DNA of 63,573 nucleotides, taken from positions 1-63,573 of the forward strand of contig JACPDF010000024.1 in the NCBI GenBank assembly GCA_016184145.1, given 5' to 3'. This document shows, one piece after another, positions 9,370 through 16,254 of this stretch. The notes beneath the pieces were generated by a model, which was not told where the DNA came from, did not search any database, and saw only the letters and a program-made list of their open reading frames with translations. The stretch is from Candidatus Woesearchaeota archaeon (GTDB taxonomy: Archaea; Nanobdellota; Nanobdellia; Woesearchaeales; GW2011-AR4). The translations under genes and the position numbers were made by a program. Positions within the stretch are counted from its first letter, which is position 1; each line of letters opens with the position of its first letter.

Positions 9370-10581
9370 ATGCATCTGCCAAAGTATAATGCAAAAAACC
9401 ATCCTTTGTTTAATTGCGGCAATGTAAACTGCCCTATATGCGCCAAGGCTTATTCCCAAATCAGGATAAAGAAAAGGATTGTCAAGGAAAATTTTTCTAC
9501 CGATGCTGTTGCCCCGTTTGTTGGAAGGTATGGGTATCCTGCTGTAAATGTCGGAATACTGGCGCCTCCGTCTGAGGAAGAGGAGTCATGGCTTTATGAT
9601 GCCCCGAAATACTGGGCTGCAAACAATTTCCAGATACCCAGAATAGTTGATTTCAGGAGCTCTTTGATAAATTCAAGGGATAAGTTTGATATCAAGAAGA
9701 GGAGCAATTTTTTGGAGCTAAACCAGGAGGTAAGCATGGCTTCAATGCCTGTTGATGTGGACATTAATCTAAAGGGCAAGCCGCGCTTTAGGATAAATTA
9801 TGACAATTTAATGGCTCCTACAGGCCCCTATGCAGAGCTAAAAAAGGCCAGATTAACTGAGAATCCAAAAATCCACACAAAGGTTCAGAAAGTGCATTAT
9901 GACACAGACTTAAAGGCAAATGAGGCATTAGTCTATCTTTATGATAATAATTTTGATGAAAATTTCTTAAGCAGGATTTTAAGTGTAGGCGCATTGGGCG
10001 TTGGGAAAAACAGGAAGTTAGTTCCTACAAGATGGTCGATAACAGCAACTGATGATACACTGGGAAGGCATTTGATTAATGAAGTAAAAAAGCATAATCA
10101 GATTGATTATTCTGCCTTTTTCGGCAGCTATCTTGGAAATCATTACTTAATATTGTGTTTTCCCGATGTATGGAGCTATGAATTGTTTGAGACAACCGTT
10201 TCCAATCCTGAATATTACATGACTGACCATGAGTTTTATGACAGCAGGAAATATTATGCTGAGAACACAGCTGGAGGCTATTATACAGTAAGATTGGCAA
10301 TATTGGAAAAATTAAATGAAATAAAAAAACAAGGAAGTTGCTTGGCTTTGAGGTTCATCACTTCTGATTATACATTGCCTTTAGGAGTCTGGGTTACAAG
10401 GGAAGCGGCAAGGAATGCCATGTCCTCGAAAAGGATAGAATTTTCATCAAAGGAATTGATGCTTGAATATGCAAGGAAGCTAATTAAGAAAAGGTTTAAC
10501 TTGGATGCAGAAGTTTATTTAAGGCAAAGCAAGGTTTTAAGGAGTATTAATAACCAATCGAAACTAATACAATACCTGTAA
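9370..10581 (+). CDS. nreA: Nre-family archaeal DNA repair protein
   Basis: N-terminal CGxxxCPI, FVGRYGYPxVNVG, RKLVPTRWSITATD, PLGVWVTRE, C-terminal PIP box QSKLIQYL. ATG 9370 preferred (TATA about 30 nt upstream). Confidence 0.88.
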   Translation: MHLPKYNAKNHPLFNCGNVNCPICAKAYSQIRIKKRIVKENFSTDAVAPFVGRYGYPAVNVGILAPPSEEEESWLYDAPKYWAANNFQIPRIVDFRSSLINSRDKFDIKKRSNFLELNQEVSMASMPVDVDINLKGKPRFRINYDNLMAPTGPYAELKKARLTENPKIHTKVQKVHYDTDLKANEALVYLYDNNFDENFLSRILSVGALGVGKNRKLVPTRWSITATDDTLGRHLINEVKKHNQIDYSAFFGSYLGNHYLILCFPDVWSYELFETTVSNPEYYMTDHEFYDSRKYYAENTAGGYYTVRLAILEKLNEIKKQGSCLALRFITSDYTLPLGVWVTREAARNAMSSKRIEFSSKELMLEYARKLIKKRFNLDAEVYLRQSKVLRSINNQSKLIQYL

Positions 10582-10615
10582 TAAAAATGCAAAAACAGCC
10601 ATTAGAATCAAAATA

Positions 10616-10623
10616 TTTAAATA
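10616..10623 (+). promoter_or_regulatory. TATA box of the leader peptide/leuA transcript
   Basis: TTTAAATA ending 27 nt before ATG 10651, the usual leaderless spacing in this window. Confidence 0.55.
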
Positions 10624-10650
10624 TGAATCATTAAATCTACATAAATTAAA

Positions 10651-10728
10651 ATGGCTGACAAAAGAATAAATAAAAATTCTGTATTGTCTTTGTTAGCTTT
10701 AAATCTATTGCTTCTGCTGTTGCTGTAA
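10651..10728 (+). CDS. Leucine-rich leader peptide MADKRINKNSVLSLLALNLLLLLLL
   Basis: 25 codons plus TAA; 11 Leu in the last 14 codons, including 7 in a row; directly upstream of a leuA-like gene. Confidence 0.75.
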   Translation: MADKRINKNSVLSLLALNLLLLLLL

Positions 10729-10764
10729 GGCCCACCAAGAGTCGGTATATTCTTAATGGGTCTT
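10727..10764 (+). promoter_or_regulatory. Hairpin overlapping the leader stop codon (putative attenuator element)
   Basis: AAGGCCCA-cc-AAGAG-loop-TTCTT-aa-TGGGTCTT, followed by GAATTTT. Confidence 0.5.
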
Positions 10765-10835
10765 GAATTTTGAGCTTGTCTGAGTTCTAGGATATGCTGG
10801 CGAAAAAAACATTGAAAAGATATTGGAGGATAAAA

Positions 10836-12530
10836 ATGATTGCATCAAAAGAGAGAAGGGAGCCTATTATATTTGACACAACTTTAAGGGAGGGTTTTCA
10901 GACACCGGGAGGAATAGGCGGATCTTTAGAGGAGAGGGTATATGCTGCCGCACTGATACAGAATTATGCTCACTGGGTTGAAATTGGAATGCCTGCTAAC
11001 AATGTTGATTATGACATTATAAGTGCCATAAGGGACAGATTTTTAGCTGAAAAATATCCAGTTGGACTTGCCGTTCTTGCAAGATGTGCGGATTTGGATG
11101 TAGAACGATCAGCAGAAGTTATGGCTAGTTATCCCAACAATTTGATACATTTGTTTGTTGGTACCTCTGATGAGCACAGAGCTGTGCGCTTCGGAGGTCA
11201 GGATAAAGACTATTATGCCCAAAAAATTTCAAAATATGTAGAAATGGCTGCCGCTAATCCTGTTTTCTTAAGGGTTATGTTTTCTCCAGAAGATTCCTAC
11301 AGGACATGGGCACAAGACCATGAAACTCTAATAAGATTTATTGAAGCAGCTAAAAAAGCTTATGATAGGGGAAATACAAAAGTTGGTAGGAAAGAGCCAG
11401 TAATATTTAATTTACCAGACACAGTCGGTGCCAGCACTGTTGAGGAGTTCTGCGGGGTGATAGAACATGTTCAGCAAGTATTTGGCAACGATGTTGAGTG
11501 GAGTGTGCACTGCCATAATGATAATCGCATGTCTCAAGCTCAGGCATTAACCGTATACGAAAGGTTTGGTGTTCCATGGATACAAACAACTTTTGCGCAG
11601 CTAGGAGAAAGGAATGGAATTGCAGCAACTGATTTAACAGTTAAAATCTTATCAGAGCGCGGCTATTTAAATGAACCAAGGATAACATCCTTAGACAATC
11701 TTAGATTGCTTGACCCCACCATGAATGCCATTATGTGGACATTAGGAAGAATGGTGCCAAAAGAGCATCTTGACAGGACAAACATTTCCACTGCCGGAAT
11801 CCACACAGATTTGGTTGTAAAAGACACATCTACATACCACATAAGGGGTGATAGGTATGGCTCACAAATTTATATAGAACTTGGACCAACATCGGGGAGC
11901 AAGCAGGTGATTGACGTATTAGAAAAAAATAGGTTTCCTTACACAAATGTTCCAAAAGAAGACATTGAAAAATTTACAGAACGATTAAAACATGAATCAA
12001 ATGCAGGAAAGTTTCCAATTTCTGAAACCCATATTCTTTATGAAGCACTCAAGGAATTTTTAAGATTTGAAGATGATGGACTGAAGGTTACTAAGTATAG
12101 ATCTATAACTAAATATGATGGTGTTGAATTGGTCGGCATAAGTGGTTCTATTGATGGTACTCCTTTTAGGAAAGTGCATAAAAGCAGAGGTCCAGTTGAA
12201 GCTGTCATGGAACTACTTAATGGTGTCATAAATGAGCATAGGGGCACAGATTCAGAAATAGCACTTGTAGATTACCTACCCTATATAGTTCCTATTATTG
12301 GAAAAGAATATCTAAATTGGGAAGTTGGGCAACGTCCTCAAATACCAAGAGAAGTAGGAAAACATGCACATCAAGGCGTTTACTTGATGTTCAGAAATGG
12401 CTCAGGAGTATACCAAGGATGGGCTAGGCACGAAAACAGTTCAAAAGCGCCAATTGATGCTGTAATTGATGGGATGACTAAAATGTATGCACTCCAGAAA
12501 TGGCAGAATCTTGCAAGACATTCGAAGTAA
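10836..12530 (+). CDS. leuA: 2-isopropylmalate synthase-like DRE-TIM enzyme with C-terminal regulatory domain
   Basis: DTTLREGFQ, NLPDTVG, VHCHND, LGERNG, AGIH; C-terminal GPVEA...LVDY resembles the LeuA allosteric domain. SD GGAGG at 10825-10829 supports ATG 10836. Substrate (IPMS versus citramalate/homocitrate synthase) is uncertain. Confidence 0.75.
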   Translation: MIASKERREPIIFDTTLREGFQTPGGIGGSLEERVYAAALIQNYAHWVEIGMPANNVDYDIISAIRDRFLAEKYPVGLAVLARCADLDVERSAEVMASYPNNLIHLFVGTSDEHRAVRFGGQDKDYYAQKISKYVEMAAANPVFLRVMFSPEDSYRTWAQDHETLIRFIEAAKKAYDRGNTKVGRKEPVIFNLPDTVGASTVEEFCGVIEHVQQVFGNDVEWSVHCHNDNRMSQAQALTVYERFGVPWIQTTFAQLGERNGIAATDLTVKILSERGYLNEPRITSLDNLRLLDPTMNAIMWTLGRMVPKEHLDRTNISTAGIHTDLVVKDTSTYHIRGDRYGSQIYIELGPTSGSKQVIDVLEKNRFPYTNVPKEDIEKFTERLKHESNAGKFPISETHILYEALKEFLRFEDDGLKVTKYRSITKYDGVELVGISGSIDGTPFRKVHKSRGPVEAVMELLNGVINEHRGTDSEIALVDYLPYIVPIIGKEYLNWEVGQRPQIPREVGKHAHQGVYLMFRNGSGVYQGWARHENSSKAPIDAVIDGMTKMYALQKWQNLARHSK

Positions 12531-12535
12531 CTCTT

Positions 12536-15064
12536 TTATTTTATTTTCCCCTTCATCTCTTCCAACTCCTCCAAAAACCTCTTTATTGTTTTTGTGATAT
12601 GTTCGGGCTGGGTCTGAAGCGTTTTTGAGATTTCTGCAAGAACGTCTCCTTTAAAAGTTACTTTTTTTGCTAATTTCAAGTCCTCTTTTGTCAGCTTGAT
12701 GCCTTTTTTGGCTGCTTTTCTTGCTTTTTTCCATACATTAAACAATTCCTGCACGCGGGAAGGAAGCTCATTTACCCCCACATCCAATAATTTTTCCGCT
12801 TCTTCCAATATTTTGTTTTTTTCCTCTAACTCCTTTTCAGCAGCTTTTCCTGCAGTAAACTCTATCCTTACGATGCTGTCGGATATTTTAGTTGATTTGA
12901 GGATTTTTATTTTTCCTGCTTCTGAAGTGTTATTTAGATGGGTGCCGCCGCATGCCTGCGTGTCCAAGCCTTTAATCTGGACAATCCTCAAATTCTTGCC
13001 CGGGACTGCGCCTCCTTGGTATATATTCATGCCGAATTTCTTCTCTGCTTCTGTCCTCGGATAGAATTTTTTTATTATCTCTGTCTTGGAATTTACAATT
13101 TTGTTGGCTTCGCTTTCTATCTTTTTTGTTTCTTCATCTGAAAGAGACTGGTAATGGGTTATGTCCAGAGTGGCTTTTTCCCTTGTTTTCTTTGCCCCTG
13201 CCTGATTAATATGATTTCCAAGCACCTTGCGGGCGGCTGTGCCTACTATATGGGTTGCGGTATGGTGCTGTGCGAGCTGTTTTCTCCTTTCTTTGTCAAT
13301 CTCAACAGCTACAATATCCCCCACTTTAAATGAAGGCTTATTTTTTAACACATGGACAATTATATTTCCCTGCTTGAAAATATCTGTTAATTCCTCATCA
13401 CTTATCTTTCCGGTGTCGTGCAGCTGCCCTCCTGAAGTTGGATAGGCGACGGTTTTGTCCAAAATCACATTGTTTCCAATTATTTTCAGCACTTTCCCTT
13501 TGCTTTCAGTTTTGAAAGGATCGTCGTAGTAGAGCGCCTCTGTTTCCTGTAGCCCTTCTAAATCGAGTTTTTCTTCTCTTTTTGTCTCGTGCTCCTGCCC
13601 TTGCTTTTCATGCATCTCAGAGACAAGGGCATAGAAATTATCCGGAACTTTGATTTTCTTTCCCATTTTTTCAGCTTCTTCCTTGACCAATTCAGGAGCA
13701 ATTCCCTGGCTGTCATACAAGGTTAATAATTTTTTCTCATTTATTTCTTCCTTGATTAATTTTGATATTATTGACTGGGTTTTTTGCTTTGTCTGCCCGT
13801 ATTTTCTCTTCTCAACATTTAAAATTTCATTGACTTCATTCAAATTTTCGCTTAATTCCGGATACAAGGGCTTCAAATACTGGGCATGCAAATTGCACAG
13901 CTCATTAAATTCAATTTTCCAGCTGTATTTGTCCATAAGAGACATCGCCCTCCTGAACAATACCCTTAGGTTATAGCCGCCGCCTACGTTAGAGGGCAAA
14001 GCCCCGTCTGAAAGAGCCACCAATAAAGCCCTCGAATGCTCCGCTATAGAATACAAAGCTGCTGATTCCAATATTTGTTTTTTTAATTCTTCTACATTGT
14101 ACCCTGTTTTTTCCGCTACAAGATTCCATGTCTTGTCTATATCCTCAACTTCGTCTATGTTAAGGTAAGAGGAGTATGGCAGGAATTTCCTCATAAGTTC
14201 AGAATCTATTTTTATTCCGGTTGCTTTTTTTAATTTTTCAACTACTGTTGGAAAGGTTGTTTCGTAGCTTGTTGGGCTTCCTTGGGTAAACCATGCGTTT
14301 CTTTCGTGCCCCATCCCCATATCAAGCACTTTTAAGCTTAATTCTTTGCTCCCAGATGGAGTTACTTCATAAAGCATGTAAACCTGGTTCCCAAGCTCCA
14401 AGCCGCGAGAAAAAAATTCCATGCACGGCCCAAAATTACCGCCGCCAGCCCATGCATCCTCATGGAACTTTATTTCCCCGTTTTTTAATCCCAAGCCTTG
14501 CTTAAGCCAGTTGTGTATATCCCTAAAGTGTCTTGCCTGCGACCATTCAGAAGGCTTCATAAAGGCATGCTGGCCGATCATGTCAAAGCACGAGTAATGG
14601 GCGCCGGTAATTCCGATATTGTCTATATCATTGAACCTTAAGCAGAGTTGAGGCACAACCAAAGGATTTGCCGGAGGCTCCACTTCTCCAGAAACTACAT
14701 AAGGCTGGAAATCGTAAATAGAGGCTTGCACAAAATCAGCATCTTGGCGCCAGCGGGCAGTAACGGGGTAGCGATTTATTGGCGTATATCCCCATTTTTT
14801 GAATAATGATGCGAATTCCTTCCAGACTCCGATATAATCAAGTTTTTTTGTTGCCGGCGTATTTCCAATAAACCTAAATCCGCCACTGCAAGAAGGATCT
14901 CCGCAGGCATCATCATCTACTACACTCCAAAAGAAAGTTCCGCATTTAGAGCATTTTTTCCTCTTGAAGCCCTCTTCTTTCAGGACAGAAGCCGCATAGT
15001 ACTTGTCAGGCTCTTTCGAAGCTTTTAATTTGAACTCTTTTTTAATTTCCTTGTCAGATTTCAT
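12536..15064 (-). CDS. alaS: Alanine--tRNA ligase (archaeal type)
   Basis: ASIYDFQP, WAGGGNFGP, ELGNQVYM, editing motifs HTATH and CGGTH. Confidence 0.96.
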   Translation of the reverse strand: MKSDKEIKKEFKLKASKEPDKYYAASVLKEEGFKRKKCSKCGTFFWSVVDDDACGDPSCSGGFRFIGNTPATKKLDYIGVWKEFASLFKKWGYTPINRYPVTARWRQDADFVQASIYDFQPYVVSGEVEPPANPLVVPQLCLRFNDIDNIGITGAHYSCFDMIGQHAFMKPSEWSQARHFRDIHNWLKQGLGLKNGEIKFHEDAWAGGGNFGPCMEFFSRGLELGNQVYMLYEVTPSGSKELSLKVLDMGMGHERNAWFTQGSPTSYETTFPTVVEKLKKATGIKIDSELMRKFLPYSSYLNIDEVEDIDKTWNLVAEKTGYNVEELKKQILESAALYSIAEHSRALLVALSDGALPSNVGGGYNLRVLFRRAMSLMDKYSWKIEFNELCNLHAQYLKPLYPELSENLNEVNEILNVEKRKYGQTKQKTQSIISKLIKEEINEKKLLTLYDSQGIAPELVKEEAEKMGKKIKVPDNFYALVSEMHEKQGQEHETKREEKLDLEGLQETEALYYDDPFKTESKGKVLKIIGNNVILDKTVAYPTSGGQLHDTGKISDEELTDIFKQGNIIVHVLKNKPSFKVGDIVAVEIDKERRKQLAQHHTATHIVGTAARKVLGNHINQAGAKKTREKATLDITHYQSLSDEETKKIESEANKIVNSKTEIIKKFYPRTEAEKKFGMNIYQGGAVPGKNLRIVQIKGLDTQACGGTHLNNTSEAGKIKILKSTKISDSIVRIEFTAGKAAEKELEEKNKILEEAEKLLDVGVNELPSRVQELFNVWKKARKAAKKGIKLTKEDLKLAKKVTFKGDVLAEISKTLQTQPEHITKTIKRFLEELEEMKGKIK

Positions 15065-16032: not shown

Positions 16033-16131
16033 GCCTCTGTAGCTTAGCAGGTAGAGCGTGCGGCTGTTATCTTACTTTTTAGAATTAAGCGAGAAACCGC
16101 AAGGTCGGCAGTTCGAGTCTGCCCAGAGGCG
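16033..16131 (+). tRNA. tRNA-Asn(GTT) with 26-nt canonical intron (16070-16095)
   Basis: GCCTCTG/CAGAGGC acceptor; TGCGG-CT GTT A[intron]A-CCGCA; GGCAG TTCGAGT CTGCC. Confidence 0.92.
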
Positions 16132-16168: not shown

Positions 16169-16254
16169 GGGCCTGTAGTTCAGCCTGGTTAGAATGCTCG
16201 ACTGATAAATTTTTGGAAATCGAGTGGTCCTCAGTTCAAATCTGAGCAGGCCCA
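16169..16254 (+). tRNA. tRNA-Ile(GAT) with 11-nt canonical intron (16208-16218)
   Basis: GGGCCTG/CAGGCCC acceptor; CTCGA-CT GAT A[intron]A-TCGAG; CTCAG TTCAAAT CTGAG. Confidence 0.92.

Follow-up and report, generated by a model that had tools for sequence, protein, structure and literature searches.

A candidate leucine-sensing leader-peptide element in front of a divergent LeuA-like gene in a woesearchaeal archaeon, and its copies across the family

In a 63,573-nt contig of a Candidatus Woesearchaeota archaeon (GenBank assembly GCA_016184145.1, contig JACPDF010000024.1; this whole stretch is referred to below as the window), a gene for a LeuA-like enzyme is preceded by a short open reading frame (ORF) that ends in seven leucine codons, and the stop codon of that ORF lies within a structured RNA element. 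We conclude that the arrangement is probably a ribosome-dependent, amino-acid-sensing leader of the attenuator type operating in an archaeon. Comparison of related genomes indicates that the window carries one of many copies of a leader-peptide/RNA-switch element spread through this archaeal family. In bacteria, attenuation by leader peptides is textbook knowledge, and archaea couple transcription and translation; we know of no established case of leader-peptide attenuation in archaea, and no archaeal leader-peptide attenuator was found in the full-text literature, judged from titles and abstracts and with subscription journals and supplements outside the scope.

The leader begins with a TATA-like octamer, TTTAAATA, at 10616-10623 (all window coordinates are on the forward strand unless marked otherwise). 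It lies 35 nt 5′ of the leader ATG, a spacing that implies a leaderless or nearly leaderless transcript. The ORF itself, at 10651-10728, encodes MADKRINKNSVLSLLALNLLLLLLL in 25 codons and ends with TAA at 10726-10728. Its last seven codons, CTA TTG CTT CTG CTG TTG CTG (10705-10725), are the proposed sensor. The TATA box, the 25-codon ORF and the seven leucines in mixed codons, which had been picked out in an earlier reading of this DNA (the original prediction), were all confirmed at these positions. Across all six frames of the 1.016-Mb window genome (G+C content 38.4%), only two stop-to-stop frames end in seven leucines and a stop: one is the leader ORF, and the other has 7 codons and no start codon. 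Runs of seven leucines occur only five times anywhere in the genome, in any frame. From these counts, and from the leucine-run ORFs at 13 of 15 homologous loci described below, we conclude that the leader ORF is not a chance ORF. Downstream of the RNA element, an A-rich spacer (10802-10835) carries a Shine-Dalgarno (S-D) sequence, GGAGG, at 10825-10829, and the main ATG follows at 10836. The gene proposed to be regulated, at 10836-12530, encodes a divergent LeuA-like (HMGL-like) enzyme of 564 aa. An in-frame ATG at 10794, which would add 14 residues (10794-10838) and lies inside the 3′ arm of the helix that we call P2, was considered as the true main start and rejected; most other copies either lack an equivalent ATG, have it out of frame, or have a stop after it.

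The RNA element was delimited by a covariance-model match at 10714-10808 (93 bits, E = 8.5e-15), the sole match in the window genome. Folding and covariation both place a hairpin stem, P1a, between a 5′ arm UAAGGCCCA at 10726-10734, which contains the whole leader stop codon, and a 3′ arm UGGGUCUUG at 10757-10765. Within it, folding predicts an inner stem, P1b (10737-10754), that pairs AAGAGU at 10737-10742 with AUUCUU at 10749-10754. The P1 hairpin, composed of both stems, has a local folding energy of -16.5 kcal/mol, which bears out the earlier claim of a hairpin overlapping the leader stop. A second helix, P2, pairs the P1 loop (5′ arm GUCGGUAUAUUCU, 10741-10753) with a segment about 35 nt downstream (3′ arm AGGAUAUGCUGGC, 10789-10801), across a U-rich linker at 10766-10788. 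By their coordinates, P1b and P2 overlap at 10749-10753; since they share bases they are mutually exclusive, and ribosome position could select either. P1a and P2 together have the topology of a pseudoknot, with median loops of 7, 4 and 21 nt. The original prediction had identified no convincing antiterminator, and that statement needs amending: a competing alternative structure does exist, in the form of P2 against the inner stem.

Support for both helices came from duplex energies and from covariation. The P2 duplex in the window has an energy of -17.6 kcal/mol, reached by 2 of 500 shuffles. In six of six related sequences the loop pairs best with the homologous segment of the region downstream, with duplex energies of -12 to -17.6 kcal/mol that are matched by 1-17 of 500 shuffled loops; the minimum-energy folds of the six contain the hairpin in three and P2 in three. 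To align all copies we used two covariance models, R1 for the hairpin stem P1a and R2 for P2, the latter built from 5 sequences. Plain MAFFT alignments (A4, A7) misplaced an insertion and the loop region, and we used model-fitted alignments (A8, A9, A10), which are biased towards the structure that is counted. With that bias, 94.8% of 597 cells in 49 rows are paired in P2, and all 13 pairs have changed on both sides (89 cells), whereas none of 500 shuffles reaches any of these measures and slid controls are only 36-51% paired. An RNAalifold consensus predicts P2 unaided. For P1a, 83% of 441 cells in 50 rows are paired and 7 of 9 pairs have changed on both sides; within the stop codon, the second nucleotide is paired in 43 of 49 rows and the third in 44 of 46. 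No Rfam family reached its gathering score in 10560-10900, where the best E-value was 1.5, for an unrelated family. A further helix, between the first codons of the leader and the codons for 'LLA', has five pairs, a consensus energy of -1.2 kcal/mol and few compensatory changes, and is set aside as tentative only.

We scanned 70 genomes of the window's family and a 151-genome sample of its order with R2 (E ≤ 0.01). The family holds 45 copies in 39 of its 70 genomes, while the order sample has matches in 3 of 151 genomes, all three of which belong to the same family. Every one of the 45 copies is preceded by a frame that ends in a run of leucine, isoleucine or valine, and in 44 this frame has an in-frame ATG; the sole exception stands behind a partial duplicate of the element and before a broken leuA. 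At that locus (L048, G024:C74, positions 1-1627), leuA is split by one TAG and one TAA, with the partial second element copy directly upstream, and the locus appears to be decaying. The leaders share the consensus MA[DN]..K.NS.LSLLALNLLLLLLL. In 41 of 44 copies a TATA-like motif lies 28-38 nt 5′ of the leader ATG, a position at which only 175 of the 4964 ATGs in these loci (3.5%) have one; one copy has an S-D sequence in its place. From this spacing, the family leaders are probably leaderless. The main ATG lies 10-39 nt 3′ of the end of the model in 40 of 44 copies.

The genes directly behind the element fall into several classes. LeuA/CimA-type enzymes follow 11 copies: 3 belong to the window's rare subfamily, 6 are of the isopropylmalate synthase (IPMS) type and 2 of the citramalate-synthase type. 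Two of the IPMS-type genes were scored against NCBIfam (704 and 695 bits; cut-off 532), the other four being classed by Pfam architecture alone. A complete leuA-ilvE-leuC-leuD-leuB operon, in which five of five genes score above equivalog or subfamily cut-offs, stands behind one copy, and leuA-leuC-leuD-leuB behind another. Stand-alone LeuA_dimer-like proteins lie directly behind 9 copies (7 recognized by Pfam and 2 by a hidden Markov model iterated from those 7), and one is the second gene behind a tenth copy. Small proteins without a family are encoded behind about 23 copies. Of the remainder, one copy is followed by a 106-aa ORF and then ilvE, and one by the end of its contig before any ORF.

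The amino acid that makes up the run changes with the downstream gene. Over the last eight residues of 44 leaders, leucine accounts for 253 and isoleucine for 47 of 352 positions (261 leucine codons when all 45 copies are counted). Before leuA-type genes (9/9), these eight residues include 5-7 leucines and at most one isoleucine; before citramalate synthase genes (2/2), they include 6-7 isoleucines and no leucine. Citramalate synthase catalyses the first step of the isoleucine route. One of the two enzymes scores 485.5 bits on TIGR00977, above the cut-off of 450, and the other has this model as its best match at 411.8 bits, below the cut-off. The ilvE copy (ilvE, 296 bits; cut-off 279) has a mixed run of 4 leucines, 2 isoleucines and 2 valines. 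The RNA helices are unchanged across Leu-, Ile- and mixed-run copies. We conclude from these matches that the residue of the run follows the pathway of the downstream gene. The codon immediately before the stop is TTA in 17 copies, TTG in 8, CTA in 5, CTG in 4 and CTT in 2; the use of five different leucine codons at one position indicates selection on amino-acid or tRNA identity and not on nucleotide sequence. Synonymous variation and pathway match together make up the signature expected of a codon/tRNA sensor; neither a membrane peptide nor a constraint acting purely on the RNA would be expected to leave it. The proposal that leucine codons act as the sensor, downstream of an archaeal promoter, is supported by the spread of the element within the family, by the switch from leucine to isoleucine and by the five codons at the last position.

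A bias in codon choice was also seen: of the leucine codons in the runs (45 copies, last eight positions), 36% are CTG, 23% CTA and 10% TTA, as against 18%, 7% and 24% in long ORFs of the window genome. This comparison mixes genomes, and we draw no conclusion from it about a sensor of rare codons; the enrichment of CTG and CTA may reflect tuning to particular tRNA-Leu isoacceptors, or RNA constraints. ARAGORN was unusable for the tRNA-Leu complement, reporting no tRNAs in the window and three in the genome where Rfam finds two in the window. These two tRNA genes, at 16033-16131 and 16169-16254 (58 bits each; 99 and 86 nt), are probably intron-containing or otherwise atypical archaeal genes.

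The leader could also be read as a functional hydrophobic (membrane) peptide, with a structural leucine tail and an unrelated RNA structure nearby. The charged N-terminus, with about 15 hydrophobic residues behind it, would suit such a peptide, as would the conservation of residues before the run. However, a membrane segment would be expected to contain mixed hydrophobic residues, whereas the runs are near-pure leucine before leuA and pure isoleucine before citramalate synthase. The end of the ORF, moreover, always lies inside a covarying helix, and the ORF always lies about 80-110 nt before the start of another gene. It also occurs before unrelated versions of leuA in distant loci, with N-terminal parts that are unrelated. 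Finally, a product of 21-27 residues would still be wholly within the ribosome tunnel at termination. We therefore regard a membrane peptide as a highly improbable explanation.

From the leader ORF, the promoter spacing, the two helices, their overlap and the match between run and pathway, all of which are features of sequence, we infer translation of the ORF, a choice of fold by stalling, a direction of regulation and the step at which regulation acts. Initiation at the TATA promoter would produce a leaderless mRNA whose first 25 codons specify the leader peptide. When Leu-tRNA is plentiful, the ribosome would reach the stop codon and cover the 5′ arm of P1 together with the 5′ half of the inner stem; the P1 loop (10741-10753) would thereby be freed to pair with 10789-10801, forming P2. 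When Leu-tRNA is scarce, the ribosome would stall upstream, in the leucine run, and P1 would fold first and withhold the 5′ arm of P2. Whether P1 or P2 forms would determine how strongly the next gene is expressed, its ribosome-binding site being immediately 3′ of the element. Some copies of the element head leu operons, which would be on at low leucine, and by that logic expression would be high in the stalled (P1) state. Our preferred output is that the P2/pseudoknot state would control how translation is initiated at this adjacent site.

We modelled this switch in 44 copies with a nested thermodynamic model and a 30-nt ribosome mask, which in part dictates the outcome. When the A site of the modelled ribosome held the stop codon, the probability of P2 exceeded 0.5 in 32 of 44 copies. 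When it held the first codon of the run, P1a exceeded 0.5 in 32 of the 44 copies and P2 in 9. Without a ribosome, P1a was favoured in 27 and P2 in 14 of the 44 copies. For the window copy, the model gave P1 1.00 and P2 0.00 whether the RNA was free or the ribosome stalled, and P2 reached 0.97 once the ribosome stood on the stop codon. Folding with and without a ribosome mask had been suggested in the original prediction, and in this model the window copy toggles cleanly.

Several points weigh against this reading. The genomes are close kin, so that counts over copies are not independent, and alignments A9 and A10 were fitted to the very helices that were counted in them. In 9 of the 44 modelled copies P2 is favoured in both ribosome states, and a nested model cannot represent P1a and P2 together as a pseudoknot. 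As to the output, sequestration of the S-D sequence was tried and rejected: mean computed accessibility from S-D to AUG was 0.60 versus 0.56 between the states, and of 41 copies 13 had a higher and 23 a lower value. A T run of at least five follows P1 in only 5 of 49 copies. Leader residues outside the run are conserved too (MA[DN]..K.NS.LSLLALN), and the peptide itself may therefore have a role. Small proteins without an assigned function follow about 23 of the 45 copies. In the window genome, which is 96.8% complete, PF00180 (Iso_dh, leuB), PF00330 (Aconitase, leuC) and PF01063 (Aminotran_4, ilvE) are unmatched, while control genomes match them; the logic of leucine biosynthesis is thus not directly applicable to the window copy. 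Lastly, in the actinobacterial LEU element, which is compared with the archaeal element below, mutations in the leucine codons reportedly deviate from what classical attenuation predicts (PMC1262725).

The same sensor might instead control transcription, either through P1 and the U-rich tract or through factor-dependent termination on an untranslated spacer, in each case set by the position of the ribosome. P1 is a stable hairpin in the window, the linker behind it is rich in U (median T fraction 0.48 over 49 copies), and a bacterial homologue of the gene has a true terminator. The short T tract noted in the original prediction is present, as T4 at 10768-10771; it is not a conserved terminator, however, since the longest T run between P1 and the 3′ arm of P2 reaches five in so few copies and is three or less in 28 of 49. 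An oligo-T terminator after P1, which we considered as the output, is therefore mostly absent, and the 3′ arm of P2 is followed by an A-rich tract. The geometry is also unfavourable. A ribosome at the stop would melt P1, so that the polymerase would terminate when leucine is short, the opposite of what suits a leu operon, and the 3′ arm of P2 lies downstream of the U tract, which leaves it no possible role in antitermination. Nor does a terminator need a start codon at the fixed short distance at which it is found here. Archaeal intrinsic termination, moreover, depends on oligo-T and not on hairpins. Transcription attenuation thus seems rather unlikely as the output. Given the lack of a consistent change in accessibility from S-D to AUG, the rarity of T runs of five or more and the short distance from element to start codon, we have a weak preference for a P2/pseudoknot state that would control ribosome loading, as against termination or RNA decay.

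Another possibility is that the RNA mainly binds a trans-acting factor or ligand and that the leader ORF is of minor importance, the candidate factor being a leucine-binding protein such as the stand-alone LeuA allosteric-domain proteins. The element has conserved unpaired stretches that could serve as a binding site, TTGCATTG after P1 and TTCT before the 3′ arm of P2, and stand-alone LeuA_dimer-like proteins are encoded close behind ten copies. A protein factor is also what the authors of PMC1262725 favoured for the LEU element. This explanation accounts neither for the change of the run from leucine to isoleucine with the pathway, while the helices stay constant, nor for the place of the stop codon in P1a. 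In addition, the element occurs once in the window genome, where no stand-alone LeuA_dimer gene turned up, though PF08502 itself was not searched for. We consider regulation mainly by a trans-acting factor quite improbable, and retain the ribosome-dependent sensor as the preferred reading.

That sensor has parallels in three bacterial systems. Like attenuators of the leuL type, the archaeal element has run codons that match the pathway (leucine, isoleucine or mixed), a pairing that would be selected by ribosome position, and a stop codon by or in the first switching segment. It differs from them in its archaeal promoter, its probably leaderless start and the lack of a hairpin-plus-U-run terminator before the gene. 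An intrinsic terminator is the defining feature of the bacterial attenuators, and only the T4 tract follows P1 in the window. The alternative fold of the archaeal element is a long-range helix between a loop and a downstream segment, with pseudoknot topology, and archaeal polymerase and termination are unlike their bacterial counterparts. The actinobacterial LEU element (PMC1262725) likewise combines an upstream ORF that has a leucine run with a pseudoknot-type RNA before leuA, and has no obvious terminator. Its base stem pairs the run of leucine codons with leuA's S-D box (PMC1262725). No such stem between run and S-D appeared in the consensus fold or the example folds of the archaeal element, in a search that was not exhaustive; the two elements have no detectable sequence relationship and belong to different domains of life. 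The mycobacterial polycysteine ORFs (bioRxiv 10.1101/834739) are leaderless ORFs with a codon run for a single residue that head the operon of that amino acid at several loci (a 'ribulon'). Their regulation is reported to act on translation and not on termination, and the authors invoke S-D availability (10.1101/834739). These ORFs are bacterial and sense cysteine, whereas the archaeal element has two covarying helices, and for it S-D sequestration is not demonstrated.

The gene in the window had been described as an archaeal leuA, or LeuA-like gene, behind an S-D sequence, GGAGG; the S-D stands, and the gene proved to be LeuA-like and non-canonical. Its product matches Pfam PF00682 (HMGL-like) at 116 bits, above the cut-off, so that it shares its catalytic domain with IPMS. 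Against the IPMS models of NCBIfam its best match is NF002086 at 129.6 bits, as compared with a cut-off of 532; it falls far below the cut-offs of all 15 models listed, the IPMS models giving at most 130 bits where more than 500 are required. The LeuA_dimer domain (PF08502) is only weakly matched by the C-terminal 176 aa (E = 0.018; 15.4 bits, cut-off 24.9); several members of the protein's family carry a precomputed match to PF08502. IPMS chains are its nearest solved structures, and in the alignment to one of them, 3EWB, it reads LREGFQ where 3EWB has LRDGEQ. The regulated gene is the only HMGL-like gene in the window genome (1.0 Mb), which together with the unmatched leuB, leuC and ilvE makes its product an orphan. 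We conclude from these comparisons that the window gene encodes a divergent, orphan LeuA-like enzyme and not a canonical LeuA. The family of this enzyme is rare: of 5.8 billion sequences, 8000 candidates were scored, and these gave 39 clusters at E ≤ 1e-40; the named relatives are labelled Woesearchaeota, Promethearchaeota and Poribacteria. At E ≤ 1e-60 the protein is found in 3 of 70 genomes of the window's family and in 3 of 401 genomes of a phylum sample, so the gene is patchy whereas the RNA element is common. Iso_dh occurs in 33 of the 70 family genomes, and the leucine pathway is therefore patchy in the family as well.

Leaders with leucine runs were also found in front of homologues of the gene. 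Among 15 loci with LeuA-like homologues, drawn from genomes and metagenomes (two of them, L036 and L037, near-identical), 13 have a small ORF ending in a leucine run upstream of the gene, so that the leucine-rich upstream ORFs whose presence before orthologues the original prediction had proposed as a check were indeed there. Both orthologues from the window's family (59% and 54% identity) have a leucine-run ORF that ends just before the same hairpin: the leader MTNKIRIVLYTNLNLFLLVLLLLLL of one is led by an S-D sequence and lies directly 3′ of the upstream gene, and that of the other, M..NPNGNAQITSVLLVLNLILLLL, lies behind a TATA box identical to that of the window. Two more archaeal loci of the same order have leucine-run ORFs. 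In one of these (L040, 1240-1500; genome G465), before a homologue of 43% identity, two ORFs ending in SLLLLLP and SLLLLLLLLL stand in tandem; the P1/P2 element is absent, and the end of the second ORF is 24 nt from the main ATG. At L032, the only locus of the 15 without a leader, the gene abuts the preceding ORF. The public titles of the metagenome-assembled genomes (MAGs) of L027, L028 and L029 name a 'Methanosarcinales archaeon' and an 'Acidobacteriota bacterium'; the same contigs occur in genomes placed in the window's family or order, and the titles are probably unreliable.

The closest homologue (63% identity) lies on a Poribacteria MAG chromosome (L026, 1235-1470). Its leader of 37 codons has 12 leucine residues and no terminal run, and is followed by a canonical terminator of hairpin plus U6. 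Repeated complementary segments give it the classic four-segment attenuator layout (1:2/2:3/3:4), and, like the window element, it matches no Rfam family. The pairing of related genes with such different leaders suggests that the gene was transferred between these archaea and bacteria and that its regulatory RNA was rebuilt after arrival in the new host.

The most frequent neighbours of the element, the small proteins, offered few clues. Most have no Pfam match at E ≤ 1, BLASTP against the LeuA-like protein gave nothing significant, and the protein atlas yielded no usable match. One family of about 96 aa lies behind the element in at least five genomes (L050, 1191-1481 on the reverse strand; L054; L068; L064; L062). 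Its AlphaFold model has a pLDDT of 84.8, yet the family has no match in the PDB at E ≤ 0.001 (best TM about 0.3) and none in Pfam. At L002 (523-1254; genome G009), a further copy of the element with a mixed Leu/Val/Ile leader, MASIKLSAKVNVVLLVLSVLILLVA, precedes a gene for a 187-aa protein without a family; this gene lies directly upstream of the S-D-led leucine leader and LeuA-like gene, and the locus thus has two leaders in tandem.

As befits archaeal DNA, the window also encodes NreA and an alanyl-tRNA synthetase (archaeal equivalog, 852 bits; cut-off 745). Element and gene are convergent with alaS in the window (12536-15064, reverse strand) and in at least two other family genomes (L002, 3190-4008, reverse strand; L050, 3-1184, forward strand). 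The gene between element and alaS varies, being LeuA-like in two of the genomes and the 96-aa protein in one. On this gene order, the locus next to alaS looks like a conserved slot with replaceable cargo.

Taken together, the data lead us to lean, with some reserve, towards a reading in which these leaders are the first case of ribosome-mediated amino-acid attenuation in Archaea. They would form a family-wide 'ribulon' in uncultured, small-genome, Woesearchaeota-like archaea, in which leaderless peptides with leucine, isoleucine or mixed runs toggle a P1/P2 pseudoknot and thereby regulate leuA operons, citramalate synthase, ilvE, stand-alone LeuA allosteric-domain proteins and several small proteins, with the sensor kept on an orphan LeuA-like enzyme where the pathway has been lost. 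As a sequence-defined and strongly covarying test case, the element brings natural codon-swap variants (leucine, isoleucine and mixed), translation that would begin at the 5′ end of the RNA, and an archaeal RNA switch unlike pairs of terminator and antiterminator. It makes testable whether archaeal ribosomes serve as metabolite sensors, and by what route the signal would pass to the polymerase or to the ribosome-binding site. What sets the window apart is that the sensor stands on a divergent LeuA-like enzyme left as an orphan, the leucine pathway being absent from the genome. The role of such orphan enzymes, and of stand-alone LeuA allosteric domains, in host-dependent archaea unable to make leucine is thereby opened to experiment as well. 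On the orphan gene, the sensor may report on leucine supplied by a host, and thus signal starvation in an organism that lacks a stringent response.

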